From a phage, in the NCBI GenBank assembly GCA_028130375.1, contig GCA_028130375.1_3658.1: DNA of 64,000 bases; one strand, 5' to 3'. Of the stretch, positions 1,712 through 63,075 are shown piece after piece; the stretch's first letter is position 1, and every line of letters starts with the position of its first letter. Under the pieces are notes generated by a model. It made no database searches. It worked only from the letters and a program-made list of their open reading frames with translations, and had not been told where the DNA came from. The position numbers were made by a program, and so were the translations under genes.

Positions 1712-2398
1712 ATGGCAGAGATTAAGTCGGATGTTAATCACATCCACACTCTGCCAGATTTTGTTCAGGGAGGTCTTGACTACCTGCCTGGAGATTTTCT
1801 GGCTGAGAAGGTTAATTTAGTCACATTCTTAACCGTATACCTTAAAAGGTTGGAGGATGTTGATAAGATGCTGGTAGGTTTGGCTGAAGGAAGATTGCTT
1901 AACAATGCCAGCGGAAGATACCTTGACGAAGTTGGTAATCAACTTGGTATTCTTAGGAATGGACTTTCAGATGCTGATTTTCGTGCCACACTAATTATTC
2001 AGCAGGCCGCAGCATCAAGGGGCGGGACTCGCGAAGATGTCATCTCCACCTTGCGACAATTGTTCGGAAGAGACAATTTCGATACGTGGAAAGGAGACAA
2101 CTTCAGGTTTGACATAAATATTAGAAAAACTTGCTTTGACATATTGCAGTCTATCGATCAGATCTTAGATATGCTACCATTACCTTGTCATTTGCGTCTT
2201 ACAGAATCGCAAGGGCAAGCTTTTGGTTTTGAAGGGGACTCTACAGCTCTTGGCTTCGGATCAGTGTGGGAAGAAAACCAATTCGGAGTTGGTGGTCTGG
2301 CTACTTTGCTATATGTTCCTGACGTAAGACCTGATTGGGACACCACAACCATTTATTGTGAAAGTATTACAGTAAACGCAACTAGACAGGAGGGTTAA
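1712..2398 (+). CDS. Putative baseplate/tail protein (P2 gpI-like position)
   Basis: 228-aa ORF immediately after the baseplate J-like gene, 11-bp gap; assignment is positional. Confidence 0.35.
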   Translation: MAEIKSDVNHIHTLPDFVQGGLDYLPGDFLAEKVNLVTFLTVYLKRLEDVDKMLVGLAEGRLLNNASGRYLDEVGNQLGILRNGLSDADFRATLIIQQAAASRGGTREDVISTLRQLFGRDNFDTWKGDNFRFDINIRKTCFDILQSIDQILDMLPLPCHLRLTESQGQAFGFEGDSTALGFGSVWEENQFGVGGLATLLYVPDVRPDWDTTTIYCESITVNATRQEG

Positions 2399-4470
2399 TG
2401 GCAACAGCTGTTTTTAAACCTTACCGTGATTACTCTACAATGGCTGCACGGTTTCATTACCGAACAGTTCAGGATACTGCCGTTCCTGGTAGGGATTATG
2501 ATCATGTTGAGGGCGATGTAACTATCCCAGTTGGGGCAACCAGTATTGAGATCCCCGTGGAAATTGTTGACAAATTACCCAACAGGTTGCCAAGAAGCTT
2601 CTTTATGGAGTTTTCATCAAAATCTCAAGGGGTGATGATTGGAACACAAAGGGCGAAATGTACAATAGTTTCAGATGAGAATCTTGACAGGATATCTTGG
2701 GATACTATTGAGGAGAGAATGTTTCACCCAAGATATTGGGTTACAACCACTCAGCAGACTGAAAGTACCTGTATTGTTGCAGATAACAACTGTTGTATTA
2801 ACCGTTTAGTGTCAAGAACATATGGAGGTATGGCTGGGTGCATTTGGGAAACAGTTGACAAGTATGACCATTTCGGTATTGGGTTTGATGATCACTATGA
2901 GATGAGAAACACCAAGCTTTGGTTCAGAATGTCAATAACCAACGCCAGCAACTTCTCCACTCCTGAAAAGATGATTATGACTGTAGACCTTGTTGATGGC
3001 ACAATCATCTATGTTCCTTTAGCTCAATATGCTGTCAGCATCTCAGAGGATAAGAATGTTGCAGAAATTCATATTGATTTTGAGGACTGCGTCGGGATGG
3101 ACCAGAACAACAACATGATGGGTGTTGATCCTCGGCAGGTGAGAAGGATTTTAATACCGCTTATGCCTAAAGACTGGGTAAGTAATAGCACAGACCCGAG
3201 AACGGAAAATGTAGAGTGTGAGTTGCGCCTAGATCTGCTTCAGCCAGACACAGGCTGGAAAATGATGCAACTTAACAATATCCAGGTGAGAGAGCACGAT
3301 GTTGGGATCTGCACCGCATATGACGATATGTGGAACGTGTCTCCTTTAAGGGTGTTGAACAATATCAAGCGTCTGGGCTATACCGGAACCATAAACCATT
3401 ATGTTGGTATGAGTCATTATTATGACTACACATGGTCAGGAACCCAATGGTCTATAAACAGAACAGGAGCGCTAAACGCTGCAGCTTATAAATGGCATGA
3501 TGATTTTATGTACAATGCCAAACGACATAACTTCGACGTTATGCAATCTGTAAGTTTTGAGCTTTTCAGCGATGCCTGCCCGTTGGAATGGACCCAAAGA
3601 GACTGGAACGATAACTACGCTAAAACAGGGTATACACCTTGTAGCTACCTCCTGTCTCCAACCATTGAAGAGGGTATGAATTTCCTTACTGCAGTATTTA
3701 AGAATTTTGCATCAGCCGCTATGAGAAACAACCTGCCAGTGATTATGCAGGTTGGTGAACCGTGGTGGTGGTACAATACCGATACTCGTAGACCTTGTAT
3801 TTATGATTACCCTACAAAACAGGCGTTTTATGATGAGACAGGCGAGTATGCATTAGATATTGGGACTATTGACGATCCTAAAACTGGAGGTGTTTACGAT
3901 AAGTATGTAGCATTTTGTCGTGGTAAGCTTGGCGCTCGTATTGCGGCTATTTCAAAGGCAATAAAGGCACACGCTGCATCAGCTCAGATGACAGCTCTGC
4001 TGTTTTTCCCAACCATTATGGAAACCGAGCTTACGCAAAAGCTTAACCTTGCTGACCAATATAAAAAGGAAGCAGGTGCTCTTGATTTCTTCTGCACCGA
4101 GTGCTACGATTGGGTGATGCAGGGAGGTATTGAAAAGGCAAAAGAGTCTGTAAACATACCTATCGTTAAGTTAGGTTGGCAACCGTCTGAAATACAATAC
4201 CTTGCAGGGTTCGTTCCTAGTAAAGAGCTTGCTCCGGTATATGGTTACGACCCAACCAGGAATTACCAAGAATTTTTATGGAGATGTATTTGCGGAAACA
4301 TGGCAACTATAGAGTATAGATATCCTGAGGTAAAACAGTATGTGTGGGCATACCCGCAAGTAATGTCTGACAGCATCACTGTTACCGCTAGAGATTCTAC
4401 CGTGCTTCATATGGGGCAGGTTGCTCTGAAAGGGTATGTAGAAGATGTTGTCCCGCCAGACTTCTCATAA
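2398..4470 (+). CDS. Putative baseplate or tail-fibre structural protein
   Basis: 690-aa ORF, start overlaps upstream stop (ATGG), sits in the structural operon. Confidence 0.4.
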   Translation: MATAVFKPYRDYSTMAARFHYRTVQDTAVPGRDYDHVEGDVTIPVGATSIEIPVEIVDKLPNRLPRSFFMEFSSKSQGVMIGTQRAKCTIVSDENLDRISWDTIEERMFHPRYWVTTTQQTESTCIVADNNCCINRLVSRTYGGMAGCIWETVDKYDHFGIGFDDHYEMRNTKLWFRMSITNASNFSTPEKMIMTVDLVDGTIIYVPLAQYAVSISEDKNVAEIHIDFEDCVGMDQNNNMMGVDPRQVRRILIPLMPKDWVSNSTDPRTENVECELRLDLLQPDTGWKMMQLNNIQVREHDVGICTAYDDMWNVSPLRVLNNIKRLGYTGTINHYVGMSHYYDYTWSGTQWSINRTGALNAAAYKWHDDFMYNAKRHNFDVMQSVSFELFSDACPLEWTQRDWNDNYAKTGYTPCSYLLSPTIEEGMNFLTAVFKNFASAAMRNNLPVIMQVGEPWWWYNTDTRRPCIYDYPTKQAFYDETGEYALDIGTIDDPKTGGVYDKYVAFCRGKLGARIAAISKAIKAHAASAQMTALLFFPTIMETELTQKLNLADQYKKEAGALDFFCTECYDWVMQGGIEKAKESVNIPIVKLGWQPSEIQYLAGFVPSKELAPVYGYDPTRNYQEFLWRCICGNMATIEYRYPEVKQYVWAYPQVMSDSITVTARDSTVLHMGQVALKGYVEDVVPPDFS

Positions 4471-22457: not shown

Positions 22458-23357
22458 ATGGCAAATCTTAACAGTTTTAGTACGCGGTGGAAACAGGACA
22501 TAACAACCAATCTTTCAGCTGGGGACATCCTTTCTGCAATTTACGAGGCTTTAGATGATAAAGCTACTTCAAAAGCGGTTTGTACCAACCCATTAATTCC
22601 TATAGTGATGAAGGTTATTGAGCGTAGATTGGTATCTGGGTCTGATAAGTGGACATATTTAGATAATGAAGGACACACCTATTCCAATGGGTATGTCGAT
22701 ATAAAAGTAGAATACGCGGTATCATACCGCCGGAGCGGTTCTGTAACTTTCAACTTCTCTGGAGGTTTTCGATCTCTGGCTACCTCACCTTTTGTTTCCT
22801 CAGAGGAGAAGTATGAGCTGCCATTTCTTTGGATGATGGCTAACGCGACAGGAAAAACCCCCGTTAGCATCCGAGTAAAATACAACTACAACGGATCTAG
22901 TAAGATCTATGCCGAAAGTGTCTCAGCAAGTTTTTATTTTGTGATGGGGGATGGAATCCTCAAACATATAAAGATGTGCGATATGCATGATGTTATAAAT
23001 GAAGTGACTGATAAGAATGTTCTAGTGAAAGACCTCAACAATTTTTATACACCTGGAGACTATTACGTCAGCCGTCCACTGTGCATCTTTAATGCCGCAC
23101 ACCCTCTAGGTGAGTATTTGATCGCCAATAGCGATATTGCCAATAACCGCTTCGAGGTAGCAAGAGTTCAGAATGAGGTATTGACATCTTGCAAGAGCGG
23201 TGATAAGTTTACCGAAGAAGAGATGGGTGTTTTAGAAATGATGGGATATAAGTGTAGCCTTTGGGTAGATGAGGTGTTTAATGATTGCATCTATGGACAG
23301 GATATTTACCCATTAAAGAAGTATACTGATACAAGTTTAATTTATGCGAGGGTTTGA
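22458..23357 (+). CDS. Hypothetical protein
   Basis: 299-aa ORF opening the + strand block. Confidence 0.55.
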   Translation: MANLNSFSTRWKQDITTNLSAGDILSAIYEALDDKATSKAVCTNPLIPIVMKVIERRLVSGSDKWTYLDNEGHTYSNGYVDIKVEYAVSYRRSGSVTFNFSGGFRSLATSPFVSSEEKYELPFLWMMANATGKTPVSIRVKYNYNGSSKIYAESVSASFYFVMGDGILKHIKMCDMHDVINEVTDKNVLVKDLNNFYTPGDYYVSRPLCIFNAAHPLGEYLIANSDIANNRFEVARVQNEVLTSCKSGDKFTEEEMGVLEMMGYKCSLWVDEVFNDCIYGQDIYPLKKYTDTSLIYARV

Positions 23358-53454: not shown

Positions 53455-53542
53455 ATAAAGTGTTGCAATAACCTAAAAACCTGCTATATTAGAACTCAAG
53501 GGGCAAGAAGTTTGCCCCACACAAAACAAAGAGGAAAACATC

Positions 53543-55085: not shown

Positions 55086-55131
55086 TTTAAACCCTGTTAA
55101 AATACCACACAGTTAACAAGGAGTGATAGAC

Positions 55132-58066: not shown

Positions 58067-58181
58067 GCCTGCCTGTCATATAAGAACTATAAAAACCGTT
58101 GACATCTGCCATGGGGTGGGGTAACATTTATCTTGAAGGGGCAAAAGTGCCCACACAACAACCAGGAGAGAGGAAAACATT

Positions 58182-58454: not shown

Positions 58455-58514
58455 TAAGATAATGACACGGGCCAAAAGGCCCACTAATCAGAACCACACA
58501 AAGAGAGAAAGAAA

Positions 58515-59217: not shown

Positions 59218-59637
59218 ATGAACATTAAATCTAATAATCCGGCATATAGCTTTGATAACGCTTTTTGTCACGGTCCGGCGGCGAAAGGATTCGAAATCGA
59301 TGGTAAACTAATTATTGTCAATGTTGACGGGGAAGAGGTTGCAGTATATCCGGTGGCAGACGTAAAAAGTCGTTTACAATGCCGCATGGATGTTACCGCC
59401 TACCAGCTTGATCCGGTCCGCATAGTTGCCCTGGTCCTGGAAGGAGAAATTAAAGCCATGCACCATAGCAACAGGTTTATTGGTGACGCTCAGGATAATA
59501 TGAAAGTATGCCGCCATAAAGTTAATGAAGTGCTTAAAGAGTACGGCTATAAAGATCTTATGATCAAACGTGAGGAAAAATTCCGCTACCGTAACGACCT
59601 GGCAAATCGGATTTTTGAAATATACGAATCATTATAA
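59218..59637 (+). CDS. Hypothetical protein (last gene of cluster)
   Basis: 139 aa; promoter TTGACA-17-TATATT at about 59141-59169; terminator hairpin aaggggcttaggcccctt + T-run at 59655-59680. Confidence 0.5.
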   Translation: MNIKSNNPAYSFDNAFCHGPAAKGFEIDGKLIIVNVDGEEVAVYPVADVKSRLQCRMDVTAYQLDPVRIVALVLEGEIKAMHHSNRFIGDAQDNMKVCRHKVNEVLKEYGYKDLMIKREEKFRYRNDLANRIFEIYESL

Positions 59638-60298
59638 TTTTTAACTGAATTATCAAGGGGCTTAGGCCCCTTTCTTTTTGTCTGCTCTTCCCCCCTACCA
59701 TAAACGGCCCTACCTGGCAAGTGGAATAATTGACGAGCCATCAATCCCACACACTGTACAAATATACATGTAAAATAGCTATTGCATAACCTTTCATTGT
59801 GTGGTAGCGGTGCTATTTTTTACCCGTTTTCCTTCCAAAATTGCACGTAATGCAGTTATTGCACAAAATTTAACCTGATGCACATCTTCAATATCTTGTC
59901 AACAACTAAAAATCTTTATAAGTCATACACTTACACAAACCAAAGAGCGTGTTCTACGTGAAAAATCGAGTATAACTATAGCCGCCAGATCTCAGAATTT
60001 ACGTACGCTCGCCATTCTATAGCCTGCTAAGCATTTATTCCAACCATAGAATAACGGAATAGTCAATACCTGCATAAAATAATTATTCGTGTAAACTGCA
60101 TAACATAAATCAGCTTAGGTGTCAACATTTTTCGTAAACAGTCTGAAATTATCACGGTGAGTTATCATAAACAGAGAAATCTTTAGTCGTCTAATGTTTA
60201 CTGTACGTTACTATACTAACTGAAATCATTAGATGACTAATAGAAAGATAAGAAATAATTAACAATACAATTATTTTATCTGTAACAATAAGGCAACT

Positions 60299-60530
60299 AT
60301 GCAAACGAATGGCATGGCGCGACGGAGTCGCGACATAATATAAAAGCAGTAACCATCACCCCCGTGATAGTTTGTCTGCAAACTATTAATCAGATCATAG
60401 TTGCCTTGTATTTAGTTAATCATGACATAACAAGCAAGGCAACTATAGATCTTCTAATAGTTGCCCTGCTTTTATATTATGTCATAGATTATTAACTTGC
60501 TAATAGTTATCATGCAAACGAATGGCATGG
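60299..60530. repeat. Nested inverted/direct repeat block (GGCAACTAT arms; 20-bp direct repeat atgcaaacgaatggcatggc)
   Basis: ggcaactat at about 60292 and 60437 with reverse complement atagttgcc at about 60399 and 60458; exact 20-bp direct repeat at 60299-60318 and 60511-60530. Confidence 0.6.
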
Positions 60531-60533
60531 CTT

Positions 60534-60608
60534 ATCATTTCCATGTAAACTGTCAAGGTGTAAACTATCCAGGCGTAAACAGTCTATGCGGGAACAATCT
60601 ATACGTGA
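60534..60608. repeat. Iteron-like tandem array (5 copies, period about 15 bp, core GTAAAC-W-GTC)
   Basis: gtaaactgtcaagg / gtaaactatccagg / gtaaacagtctatg / gaacaatctatacg / gtgaacagtgaaac; further GTAAACAG copies near 60100, 60136, 60907, 61676. Confidence 0.6.
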
Positions 60609-61254
60609 ACAGTGAAACATGAAATAATAACAGTCGTTATTGTTCCATATTGTGTCATAGTATGTCACCATTATGTCTAAAGTGTCTAAGGTGTCAGACA
60701 AGTTTTTCTCCTCTTTGTCAAGTGCTGCATGAAAAATTTACAATCTTGTATGGTAGCATTTTTGCGGCCATGTTTACATTCAGCGATGTATGTATAAGCC
60801 TTGTTGTGTGGGCGTTTAGACGTCTAGACGGTTGGAAGTCCACAGGTCAATATCTAATCTATCGGCTGCTAACTATATCCCACACAAATAGTAATAAATA
60901 TAATTGTTATATGCGTAAACAGTAACTCATGTTATCAATCCCTGTATGTATCGCCAGTGGTGCGCATAATGGGTATTATGTTAAATTGCCCGTAATGATA
61001 ACAGTTCTCACAATGATAGGTATTCTCATTCATCCACACAAAATAGGTTGCAAATGTTGTGCCACTGTGTGAACGGCCTGGCCTATTAATTTCTCTCACT
61101 GCCTCGATATTTGAGAATTGTTATAAGAATGAGAAGTATTCCCATTCCGTCCGCCTGGCAGCGCTCCTGTAGGTCCTGCAAGGACTCTAGCTGAAAGCTA
61201 GACCCTTCGGGCCTCCCTGTAGGTCAGGTCAAAATCGTGGCAGAACTGAGCCTG

Positions 61255-61470
61255 TTCAGATATTTCTGGCTGACTCTTCAGGTCTGTGTGGGAAAAGCCA
61301 ACCTCTCCGGCGGGGCAGGGGGAGGTCAATTAAAAAATTTACGTGGTGTATGAAGCGCTCTTCAGGTAAGGCAGGTATTATGGGATGAAACCCTCTTCAG
61401 GCAATGATATTTGTGGGTGTGATATTTGCTGGAAAGCCAGATATGACGGGACTCCCGGCGGGGCAGGGGT
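61255..61470. repeat. GC-rich direct repeats (CTCTTCAGG several copies; cYccggcggggcagggg x2)
   Basis: ctcttcagg at about 61275, 61349, 61393 (again near 61805); ccggcggggcagggg at 61307-61321 and 61455-61469. Confidence 0.55.
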
Positions 61471-62165
61471 AGTACAGACAGGGAAAATATGAGAATGTAG
61501 TTGGGGAAATTGATCAGACAGGTAGAGTATGGAATATGTTACAAGTATGTTAAATATGGAGGTTGAATATCTGTAGGATTTGTGTGTAAAATCAAAGACT
61601 TAAGGGGTGTTGTGGTATTTTCTATAAATAATTCAAGTTTAATAGGCAATATTTGTCTCTATCCGCTTTGTGTGGTAAACAGATTCAGATTAGATTGGTT
61701 TACAAGTGTATACATAATATACAAATTAAAGATACAAGAAACCCCCCTCCCCCCTTCGGCTACCATTCACCTTTTCCTCTGACTGGTACTTAAACACTTA
61801 TTCAGACTCTTCAGGTTATCACCCATATATCATATGGCAGTGACTGGTGTCCTCCGGCCCCTCTTTCGTCACCCGTCCGCTTCGCCATGCTAATGCCATA
61901 GCTAATGGTTCGGTTGTTCACCCTGTTCACTCAGGTGTATCTCTATACCCCTTCAAACCGAAGAGAACAGAAAACCCGAATTACTCGGTAAAAGAAAAGA
62001 GAAGAACTTAATTTTATCAGGATAGGCAAGAATGTCAAGGCATGACTGCTCACTAAACAAGCAAACAGTCATGTGTGGGAGGTAAGTGATTGTGGTGGTA
62101 GGAAATTTAGTTGAAAGATGTGTTATAGGTGCTTCCAGCACTTTAGCCGGGCAGCTAATTGTGTG

Positions 62166-62381
62166 TCAGTCCAGCGGTTCATCCTCTACTTCACTGAAAT
62201 CAATGTTCATGGTCTCTTCCCAACCATCGATCTCAGCACAAGAGTGGAGTTCTTTAGGGTTTACTCCCAAAGCCTCAGCAACAGAGTCTATATTTAACAC
62301 CTCTGGCAGGTATGATTCATCGAATTCAAGGTAAATCAGGCCACGAGTGTTGTCAGCTCCACCAAATATCTCTATCTTCAT
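62166..62381 (-). CDS. Hypothetical acidic small protein
   Basis: 71-aa ORF on - strand. Confidence 0.4.
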   Translation of the reverse strand: MKIEIFGGADNTRGLIYLEFDESYLPEVLNIDSVAEALGVNPKELHSCAEIDGWEETMNIDFSEVEDEPLD

Positions 62382-62502
62382 AAAATCTCCTCTGGGAATG
62401 AAAGTGTGAACAGGGTTTTATACGTTCTAATGCACAGGAATTATACACGTTTGCCTCTTCAGGCCATGCTTTAGCATGAGGAACCTGTGTGGGCTCGGTG
62501 CT

Positions 62503-62715: not shown

Positions 62716-63075
62716 GTTCCACCCGTGAGTATTCCGGCAACAGCCGCTATGGAAGTAATGATCATCAGGATCACCACTAAAACTTCAGACAATGTTCTCA
62801 TTGTGTATTCCATATTCTCCAAACTGTGTGTGGATACTATCACGGGAGCGGTAATGTGTCAACAGAAACGCCGCGAGGGTTTGGTTAAAATCCGAGCGTA
62901 TGGTGATTTGGGTCAAAACGGACGTGCGTTCTCGCTACGCTCGAAAGAGAGATTTGTTTGTAGGAAGCTCTTAAACGCTCTGTAATGAGATTATCTGTCC
63001 AAGGTATGCAATCGTGCACCAGATAAAGAAAAGGACGCCACAGAGCGTCCTAGGTGTCTTAAATTTGATATTTTG

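Follow-up and report, generated by a model that had tools for sequence, protein, structure and literature searches.

A gene-free region of Vequintavirus genomes holds the terminal repeat of the genus and is probably a T7-style concatemer junction

Why does a phage genome that is otherwise densely coding contain 2.5 kb in which no gene can be recognized? This question is raised by positions 59640-62160 of the 64,000-nucleotide stretch of phage DNA that we analyzed (contig GCA_028130375.1_3658.1), which we refer to as the window and whose coordinates are used throughout. The phage from which the window stems is a Vequintavirus, that is, an rV5-like Escherichia coli myophage, and in blastn searches the region is 86-98% identical to 122 records, all of them Vequintavirus. 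The region is the gray-shaded box marked "non-coding" that was drawn between the convergent genes 163 and 164 on the map of the 2013 rV5 paper; the gap was already known, and no function was assigned to it there. In the rV5 record, the homologous stretch between ORF164 and ORF163 is without any annotated feature, and the rV5 authors expected bidirectional terminators at the 163/164 junction and found none. An original prediction, made from the sequence alone, had offered a replication origin, a packaging site or genome end, and a locus of structured non-coding RNAs as candidate functions.

Our results make it likely that the termini of the virion DNA are located in this region and that its repeat arrays serve packaging, and thus that it is the T7-style concatemer junction of Vequintavirus. 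Comparison with related phages establishes the position and the boundaries of a direct terminal repeat (DTR), breaks in conservation at its edges, variable arrays at both cuts, and the absence of genes. We aligned the window with 16 relatives (17 phages in total), and the most divergent relative available was L022, a contig from IMG/VR. The comparison is confined to one genus, as neither the region nor its flanking genes had a homologue outside it in our searches: blastn in distant mode returned Vequintavirus only, the matches of a tblastn search with a flanking gene were confined to the same genus, and exact-pattern scans yielded two contigs in IMG/VR and two in JGI/ENA metagenomes, none of which ends at a terminus.

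The terminal repeat, its boundaries and the arrays at the cuts

The DTR (Table 1) starts with GACAAGTTTTTCTCC and stops with ...CCATTCCGTCCGCC. The record of phage Gotham carries a 459-bp repeat_region at both ends, in two identical copies that correspond to 60697-61155 (95% identity). These 459-bp terminal repeats have been published, and the authors describe one start sequence for all virions (PMC7471380). According to Korf et al., the vequintaviruses EdH4 and HdK5 have terminal redundancies of 458 bp, and a phAPEC8-like relative has a 328-bp repeat (PMC6563267). The terminal repeats of Gotham and of EdH4/HdK5 are the same element as that in the window, with 95% identity, the same convergent genes and the same two boundaries. 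The records of EdH4 and YN3 contain the DTR at both ends, bounded as in Gotham. Further records are cut at one or the other edge: those of Aya and ECP2303 right after ...TGTCA (60696|60697), that of Pr121LW, which starts at the first base of the DTR, and four bov records, which start at 61155 and end at 61156. A cos site was considered and rejected, the repeat being present at both ends of records.

The window and most records hold a single DTR copy between two unique arms. Short-read assemblers usually collapse DTRs, which leaves the repeat in the middle of a contig and makes the genome look circular (PMC10438801). In the window, too, the DTR is present once and mid-contig. In the record of Shigella phage CM1 (L015, MK962749; locus 1602-2647), we found a perfect 523-bp tandem duplication, the right edge of which falls exactly on 61155. 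Re-circularization of a DTR-genome-DTR sequence would produce such a duplication. The record of phage I29 (L016, ON286975; locus 1933-3072) shows a 546-bp duplication joined via a 60-nt fold-back at window position ~61531, which is most likely an assembly artefact.

Both boundaries are also evident in the 17-genome alignment. Inside the DTR, 62-95% of the columns are invariant and mean column conservation is 0.90-1.00, compared to ~0.25 just left of it (60600-60679) and 0.31-0.55 just right of it (61160-61239); the lowest values, 0.24-0.31, are those of 60600-60679 and 61160-61199. These abrupt breaks at both DTR edges support the boundaries independently of the record ends. Among the three functions originally considered, a packaging site or genome end is supported by the 459-bp repeat of the relatives and by the record ends, while a locus of structured non-coding RNAs is without direct support.

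Each cut lies next to the center of a short palindrome and is abutted by a segment that varies between phages. On the left, the palindrome is TGTC-A-GACA; its left half is the last TGTCA unit of an array, after which the DTR begins. The TGTC-period repeats that had been pointed out in the original prediction start at 60653, 60663, 60674, 60683 and 60692. A period of ~10 bp would place such sites on one face of the helix. Sequence and length of the TGTCA arrays vary between phages, and the arrays end with ...TGTCA|GACAAG in all 17 phages and in L022. Further left, Tandem Repeats Finder placed 15-bp tandem iterons at 60544-60613, in agreement with the iteron-like array noted before, and the whole array consists of five units, four strict and one degenerate. 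It follows a conserved box, the second copy of a 20-bp direct repeat. The 17 phages have between one and nine iterons with the strict motif, and both the motif and its 15-16-bp spacing are retained; the array is present in the divergent L022 and is the least conserved segment of the region. Iteron cores are found 14 times (3.5 expected), and the additional copies that are fully conserved are scattered over both arms and within the DTR. We propose that the iteron array is a binding array for a packaging protein (the small terminase) or else for a replication initiator.

The right cut lies next to the center of GCC-T-GGC (CCGTCCGCC|TGGCAGC). The variable segment that follows (window 61130-61260) measures 81-149 nt across the 17 phages. 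In the window, the motif CCTGTAGGTC is duplicated (61166, 61216) around a 50-bp hairpin-rich insert, which only some relatives possess, and the motif CTCCTGTAGGTC of this flank occurs once or twice per phage with different inserts between the copies. Next to it lies a two-copy module, G-rich on the + strand, that contains the CTCTTCAGG and CCGGCGGGGCAGGGG repeats of the original prediction. The former has four copies (61274, 61358, 61393, 61807) compared to 0.2 expected, and the latter two (61307, 61455). The module is conserved in all 17 related phages, with a 68-nt insertion after the first module in L022, and possibly represents protein-binding sites on the second side of the junction.

Table 1. 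Positions of the features found in and around the terminal repeat (window coordinates).
Feature	Position	Strand	Basis or remark
Intrinsic terminator, hairpin AAGGGGCTTAGGCCCCTT followed by T-run	59655-59682	+	Terminator scan; annotated at the same place in Alma, Murica and Gotham
Conserved AT-rich non-coding left arm, 33-39% G+C	59683-60282		Composition, alignment
Nested inverted-repeat block, bounded by exact 20-bp direct repeat	60299-60531		Repeat search
Imperfect palindrome, ~150 bp	60332-60483		Repeat search, folding
Terminator-like hairpin, 15-bp arms, 10-nt loop, followed by TTTTATATT	60432-60480	+	Repeat search; annotated terminator in Alma and Murica
Iteron array, 15-16-bp units, core GT(A/G)AAYNRT (GTAAACAGT)	60544-60618	+	Tandem Repeats Finder
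TGTC(A) array, 9-11-bp period, five copies	60638-60696	+	Abuts left terminus
Direct terminal repeat, 459 bp	60697-61155		Homology to annotated end repeats of relatives, and record ends
Sigma-70-like promoter, TTGTCA-18-TACAAT	60715-60744	+	Promoter scan, 10/12 matches
Variable segment abutting right terminus, starts with TGGCAGCGCTCCTGTAGGTC	61156-61236	+	Alignment
Two-copy module CTCTTCAGG ... TGTGGG ... GAAAGCCA ... CCGGCGGGGCAGGGG, with third CTCTTCAGG	61272-61472	+	Repeat search
Most extreme G/C strand asymmetry in 64 kb	61480-61640	-	+ strand G 24-30%, C 4-6%; G/C ratio 8.0
C6TC6 tract (G6AG6 on - strand)	61742-61754		Low-coordinate edge of invariant block; length varies between relatives
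Nearly invariant 255-bp block	61750-62004	-	Downstream of - strand promoter
Sigma-70-type promoter, TTGACA-16-TGnTAAAAT	62011-62038	-	Promoter scan, 11/12 matches plus TG

Absence of genes between two convergent gene blocks

The original prediction had recognized no convincing open reading frame (ORF) in the region, and a coding test against the relatives bears this out. ORFs of 80 aa or more occupy 14% of 59640-62160 compared to 89% of the remaining window, and it is within the region that the two longest stretches without an ORF in the 64-kb window are found. When 28 ORFs of at least 30 aa were compared with the 16 relatives, none showed an excess of substitutions at the third codon position, and the majority were broken by stops or frameshifts in most of the relatives. 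A control gene next to the region (62166-62381, - strand) had 4/2/18 variable columns by codon position and was intact in 16/16 relatives. Among the ORFs rejected because they are not gene-like in this test are one of 91 aa, which is called a "putative membrane protein" in one record, and those within the nearly invariant block listed in Table 1. The annotations of related genomes either show small ORFs that are mutually inconsistent between annotators or call none.

The flanking genes on both sides are directed inwards, as had been noted before and as is also the case in the rV5 paper, and the original prediction was correct in that the region is not a simple promoter region. The last gene before it (59218-59637, + strand, 139 aa) is a homologue of rV5 ORF164, for which the annotators of Murica noted a "Rel homology domain". 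This homologue is absent from FV3, HMD-6, Alma and APCEc02, where an upstream 87-aa gene directly borders the non-coding region.

The region is also matched, as Vequintavirus sequence, by 19 records labeled "Campylobacter phage" (MG0656xx, e.g. L014, MG065690; host C. jejuni). The only one of the "Campylobacter phage" records that was inspected, A135, is marked UNVERIFIED and classified under Vequintavirus. Probably, the C. jejuni host labels of the MG0656xx records reflect contamination or mislabeling.

Palindrome, predicted promoters and the two conserved arms

The region is rich in repeats beyond those at the cuts. It contains 37 direct and 18 inverted exact 10-mer repeat pairs, compared to 9.9 +/- 11.2 and 5.2 +/- 3.5, respectively, in other 2.5-kb windows. 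All repeats listed in the original prediction are present in the sequence and required small coordinate corrections only: the exact 20-bp direct repeat is located at 60299-60318 and 60512-60531, its second copy having been placed one base off, and the poly-C tract exists as C6TC6, ending at 61754 instead of 61756. The description of the region as highly structured is true for ~240 bp (60310-60550), where folding z scores reach -5 to -8 on both strands in a sliding window as RNA and -9.0 as DNA; elsewhere, folding is no better than that of shuffled sequence.

This structured part coincides with the nested inverted repeats. The element GGCAACTAT occurs in the region four times in alternating orientation (60292+, 60405-, 60438+, 60465-), and these are four of its six copies in the window. 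The nested block is present in 118 records at 83-100% identity. Its core is a palindrome whose outer arms match perfectly over 18 bp (60332-60349 and 60466-60483) and enclose inner GGCAACTAT/ATAGTTGCC arms as well as a small ATCAC-CCCC-GTGAT hairpin; as DNA it folds with a z score of -9.0, and 0/200 shuffled sequences fold as well. Strong folding on both strands indicates that the symmetry of the palindrome resides in the DNA and is not strand-specific. The palindrome could form a cruciform or hairpin, which makes it a candidate for a bidirectional transcription block and/or for a hairpin intermediate in the duplication of the terminal repeat. After 60487, an insert of 48 nt with three small GC-rich hairpins (AAACACCCGAAGGGGTGACCAAAGGTCACCTGGCATAGCCAGTGAAAG) is found in most relatives and is missing from the window, and rV5, LL12 and A135 have a further 33-nt insert near 60428; hairpin modules are gained and lost inside the palindrome block.

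The terminator at 59655-59682 closes the + strand gene block that ends at 59637. The left arm between this terminator and the nested block has 48-80% invariant columns across the 17 phages, 78-98% identity to L022 and no coding signal. It contains fully conserved isolated iteron cores (GTAAAC at 60091 and 60134, GTTTAC at 60196) and a TGTCA at 60120. In virion DNA, the left arm would be the unique sequence that directly adjoins the terminal repeat of the right end on its inner side.

Two predicted promoters of the host type are conserved in the region. One of them is located inside the DTR, 19-48 bp from the left terminus (60715-60744), and is predicted to be directed inwards from the left end. 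Both of its hexamers are conserved in all 17 related phages, two of which have a 1-nt indel in the spacer. The other one, at 62038-62011 on the - strand, is directed towards the DTR and has a predicted start near 62004. In 5 kb scanned, only two sites reached 11/12 matches plus TG, namely this one and the promoter annotated by the rV5 authors upstream of ORF164. Among 22 sequences, its -10 hexamer does not vary at all and its -35 hexamer deviates in CM1 only; L022 has kept both hexamers and shows changes and a 2-nt insertion in the spacer.

Downstream of the - strand promoter follows the nearly invariant block. A 361-bp query that covers most of this block and the promoter region (61760-62120) was 96.1-100% identical in 118 records and matched over its full length in 30/30 of the records listed. 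L022 has two changes in the 255 nt of 61750-62004, and the adjacent gene is far more divergent. The few substitutions in the block show no codon periodicity. As - strand RNA, the block has a minimum free energy z score of -2.3 (-1.35 with slightly longer ends) compared to 0.0 for the + strand. RNAalifold returned a plausible helix that closes the 5' and 3' ends, followed by a U-rich tail, and no covariation; in the only hairpin examined by eye (61896-61908), the changes in the stem are uncompensated. The block is a candidate for a non-coding RNA (~265 nt including the G tract), for an R-loop-forming element or for another cis-acting element. The C6TC6 tract at its edge resembles the CSBII element of human mitochondrial DNA, which we regard as a lead only.

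Two segments of opposite, extreme G/C asymmetry lie side by side between the two-copy module and the invariant block. As - strand RNA, 61480-61640 would be C-rich, G-poor and almost unstructured (approximately -3.5 kcal/mol per 120 nt). In 61700-61800, C rises to 35% and G is 9% on the + strand. The sign of the G/C skew switches at ~61670, in a less conserved AT-rich spacer between two conserved blocks. By their composition, 61480-61640 resembles a Rho-loading (rut) site for - strand RNA and 61700-61800 one for + strand RNA, and the two segments may be facing Rho-loading sites or two convergent non-coding transcription units. An enrichment of CsrA-type GGA motifs in the G-rich segment was rejected, as the ~11 counted by eye are about as many as base composition predicts. 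The second most extreme excess of G over C in the window (ratio 6.5 in 80 nt) lies outside the region at ~23201-23300.

Compared to L022, most of the non-coding DNA is 90-100% identical and the genes to the right are 70-85% identical. This unusually strong constraint on non-coding DNA suggests further functions.

Motif and RNA searches gave little else. The tRNA scan and the Rfam search that the original prediction had proposed did not support RNA genes: ARAGORN found no tRNA or tmRNA gene in the whole window, and Rfam gave no match at the gathering score in the window and two chance-level matches in the region, at E-values up to 5 only. Chi, DnaA-box and IHF motifs were absent or not enriched. 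A single DnaA-box match (61583-61591, - strand) and a single IHF match (61590-61602, + strand) exist in the region and overlap each other, neither motif being enriched across the window. For the heptamer TGTGTGG/CCACACA, we counted 33 copies in 64 kb compared to ~8 expected for a random heptamer on both strands, with eight copies in the region and others, for example, at 53517-53523, 55105-55111, 58151-58157, 58494-58500, 62486-62492 and 62827-62833. On the sense strand, CCACACA is often located between a terminator hairpin and a ribosome-binding site, 15-25 nt before the start codon, which suggests a 5' untranslated region, promoter-start or RNA-processing motif of this phage group.

The proposed packaging junction and competing explanations

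If the region is the concatemer junction, virion DNA would be linear with the 459-bp DTR at both ends, and concatemers as well as collapsed assemblies would hold one copy per junction. The single DTR would then be preceded by the final unique DNA of one genome copy (59640-60696) and followed by the initial unique DNA of the next (61156-62160), and virion molecules would start with GACAAGTTTT and end with ...CCGTCCGCC. In T7, the small terminase recognizes PacB and the large subunit cuts at PacC (PMC9860248). By analogy, the terminase may recognize the arrays, which are the GTAAACAGT iterons together with the TGTCA repeats to the left of the DTR and the CTCCTGTAGGTC and CTCTTCAGG repeats to its right. 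The small subunit would bind them as T7 gp18 binds PacB, and the large subunit would cut at two fixed sites, as at PacC, next to the centers of TGTCA|GACA and GCC|TGGC. A terminase gene was not among the ten large window ORFs scanned against Pfam. T7-type concatemers contain one repeat copy, and the second is synthesized (PMC10438801); a hairpin intermediate has been observed in T7 (PMC4281155). Likewise, nick-primed or hairpin-primed synthesis might provide the second DTR copy here, so that each packaged genome would receive two, and the ~150-bp palindrome, 215-365 bp outside the DTR, is a candidate hairpin for this duplication. After infection, the repeats would let concatemers form by annealing or recombination and thereby solve the end-replication problem. 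The terminator at 59655, the palindrome/terminator block and the rut-like segments may help to keep the convergent transcription units off the junction. The region also carries the two putative host-type promoters.

Several points weigh against this reading. The termini of the window phage itself are placed at 60697 and 61155 by its 95-97% identity to relatives. In CM1, the duplication starts ~62 bp left of 60697, before the TGTCA array, so that the left boundary may differ between phages, the repeat of CM1 being longer, or the CM1 record may be an assembly artefact. The palindromes at the cuts are short, with arms of 3-4 bp, and the right-hand one is broken in Mangalyan. FV3 (L011, NC_019517) is without the palindrome block (60319-60511) and has kept a single copy of the 20-bp repeat. 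Since exactly the DNA between the two 20-bp repeats is gone, this is the deletion expected from recombination between them, and it is either a rare natural deletion or an artefact of cloning, assembly or sequencing of a long palindrome. Unless it is an artefact, the missing block of FV3 argues against an essential role of the palindrome. Moreover, in comparison with L022, most of the non-coding DNA is better conserved than the neighboring genes, for which packaging and termination are not an obvious account. Finally, three papers report permuted genomes or headful packaging: circular permutation is stated in the rV5 paper, the PhageTerm result for four bov phages was "circular permutated", and a 2026 Vequintavirus paper derived headful packaging with partial permutation from PhageTerm for BpE1AUH. 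Together with the arbitrary start points at which most records were deposited, these reports would fit headful packaging from a pac site in the region, with permuted DNA, no fixed repeat, and a 459-bp repeat that is an artefact of assembly or interpretation. We regard this as very unlikely, as three groups independently deposited a 458-459-bp repeat at both ends with the same two boundaries and the records of further groups are cut at one or the other of them. In addition, a single pac site predicts only one sharp end, whereas two sharp edges are found 459 bp apart at conservation breaks, and the routine collapse of DTRs by short-read assemblers makes genomes look circular.

A replication origin in the region, which may coexist with packaging, has a modest chance of being real. 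It might be of the iteron type, with a phage initiator bound to the GTAAACAGT array beside the AT-rich left arm. Tandem 15-16-bp iterons at 60544-60618, a G+C content of 33-35% at 59950-60550 and the fourfold excess of scattered conserved iteron cores fit this possibility, as do the tandem ~15-19-bp direct repeats near AT-rich DNA in iteron origins such as lambda ori, P1 oriR and those of iteron plasmids. Alternatively, the origin might be primed by transcription. In T7, secondary origins are found at promoters close to the genome ends; the origins of T4 and ColE1 rely on R-loops that stem from promoters, and such hybrids are stabilized by G clusters. Here, the promoter at 62038-62011 would give rise to a G-rich transcript that ends at G6AG6 (61754-61742) before an AT-rich stretch and primes DNA synthesis. 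The conservation of the promoter hexamers in L022 in spite of a diverged spacer, the 255-bp block between promoter and G tract, and the skew switch at ~61670 are consistent with this. However, an iteron number of 1-9 among phages that are ~90-95% identical is unusual for an origin, and the array directly meets the terminus cut. DnaA boxes form no cluster, with one match in the region and three in the window compared to 8.8 expected; in the records of relatives that were inspected, the genes annotated within a few kb to the left and right encode small hypothetical proteins, and no initiator is among them. Skew changes merely track the direction of transcription according to the rV5 authors, and an origin firing towards a genome end at a distance of 1 kb could function only if the template is circular or concatemeric.

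The same - strand promoter might instead drive a non-coding RNA, the best candidate being one of ~265 nt from ~62004 to ~61740 near the genome end. We hold this possibility to be about as doubtful as an origin. In its favor, the promoter combines 11/12 matches with an extended -10 element and is conserved like real promoters, and the putative transcribed block is the best conserved sequence of its neighborhood, ends exactly at the poly-G/C tract, lacks coding periodicity and folds better as - strand RNA, with its closing helix and U-rich tail, than as + strand RNA. Against it, the z score shrinks with slightly longer ends, the changes in the hairpin at 61896-61908 are uncompensated, and variation in the block is too low for covariation. 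No Rfam family emerged above chance level even at E-values up to 5, there is no tRNA, and strong folding is limited to the palindrome, which is symmetric on both strands; a literature search for Vequintavirus transcriptomes gave nothing usable. Least credible of all is a mere transcription-termination buffer between convergent operons, made of decayed gene remnants and without a role at DNA ends. The converging genes, the terminator at 59655, the terminator-like hairpin at 60432 and the rut-like G- or C-poor segments, the most extreme ones in the window, would suit a buffer. Yet it leaves unexplained the terminal repeat, the record ends, the variable arrays with preserved motifs and the higher conservation of the non-coding DNA compared to the neighboring genes, and the other convergent junction of rV5 (genes 26/27) is described only with bidirectional terminators.

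The T7-style concatemer junction that we favor can be compared with known systems. The T7/T3 junction has, as proposed here, a short DTR once per junction, fixed cuts on both sides, recognition outside the repeat (PacB) and a separate cut site, together with a synthesized second repeat copy and a reported hairpin intermediate. T7 is also said to possess short imperfect repeats arrayed to either side of its terminal repeat, promoters close to each end and, to the left of the junction, an inverted repeat, reportedly described by Dunn and Studier in 1983 and by Chung, Nardone and Hinkle in 1990. In contrast to the 137-kb myovirus genome here, T7 is a 40-kb podovirus, and there is no sequence similarity. 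The Vequintavirus region further differs in its host sigma-70-type promoters without a phage RNA polymerase, in genes that point towards the ends rather than all rightwards, in ~1 kb of conserved non-coding DNA on each side and in the large variation of array copy number. P1 pac hexamers, lambda cosB R sites and SPP1 pacL/pacR boxes are short motifs around a terminase cut, and in these systems, too, several copies of 5-16-bp motifs stand at helical-repeat spacing beside the cleavage site. However, these phages make cohesive or headful-permuted ends and no fixed short DTR, and the array copy number in Vequintavirus varies widely between near-identical phages. Iteron origins differ from the array described here, with its 1-9 iterons and its contact with a cut, by an initiator nearby and a DnaA-box cluster; the region has no such cluster, and no initiator is annotated within a few kb of it in the inspected records of relatives. 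The T5 injection-stop region lies ~10 kb inside, in the 10-kb repeat, and halts DNA entry during first-step transfer. It is comparable as gene-free, repeat- and palindrome-dense DNA tied to the terminal repeat of a large virulent coliphage; unlike in T5, there is no sign of two-step injection here, and the sequences are not similar.

The strong conservation of the arms may also point beyond packaging. It appears rather improbable that they form an undescribed end-proximal control module in addition to the packaging junction. Such a module is proposed to comprise a nearly invariant, host-promoter-driven transcript of ~265 nt that ends in G6AG6 and would either be an early non-coding RNA encoded near the genome end or prime replication through an R-loop, a G-rich unit that faces it from the other strand and meets it at the skew switch at ~61670, and the palindrome as an end-duplication hairpin. 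If this were true, transcription, the priming of replication and the duplication of the ends would be linked at the termini of a large myovirus, which would use the host polymerase as T7 uses its own.

The terminal repeat of the genus is already published; what is new is its placement in the "non-coding" box, the anatomy around the cuts and the constraint on the flanking DNA. The Gotham and EdH4/HdK5 papers give the repeat length only, without placement in the box, arrays, palindrome, promoters or conservation pattern. Few E. coli phages are isolated as frequently as those of the rV5 type, which are also candidates for use in therapy and biocontrol, and the placement of the DTR is of practical value: many GenBank records of these phages start at arbitrary points, for which it provides a natural genome start valid for the genus, and it explains a 2.5-kb gap that gene callers have filled with spurious ORFs. 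The anatomy of the DTR also tells engineers which cis-acting DNA packaging needs. Overall, the region provides a testable model for short fixed terminal repeats in a large myovirus, a process that has been studied almost only in T7-like podoviruses.

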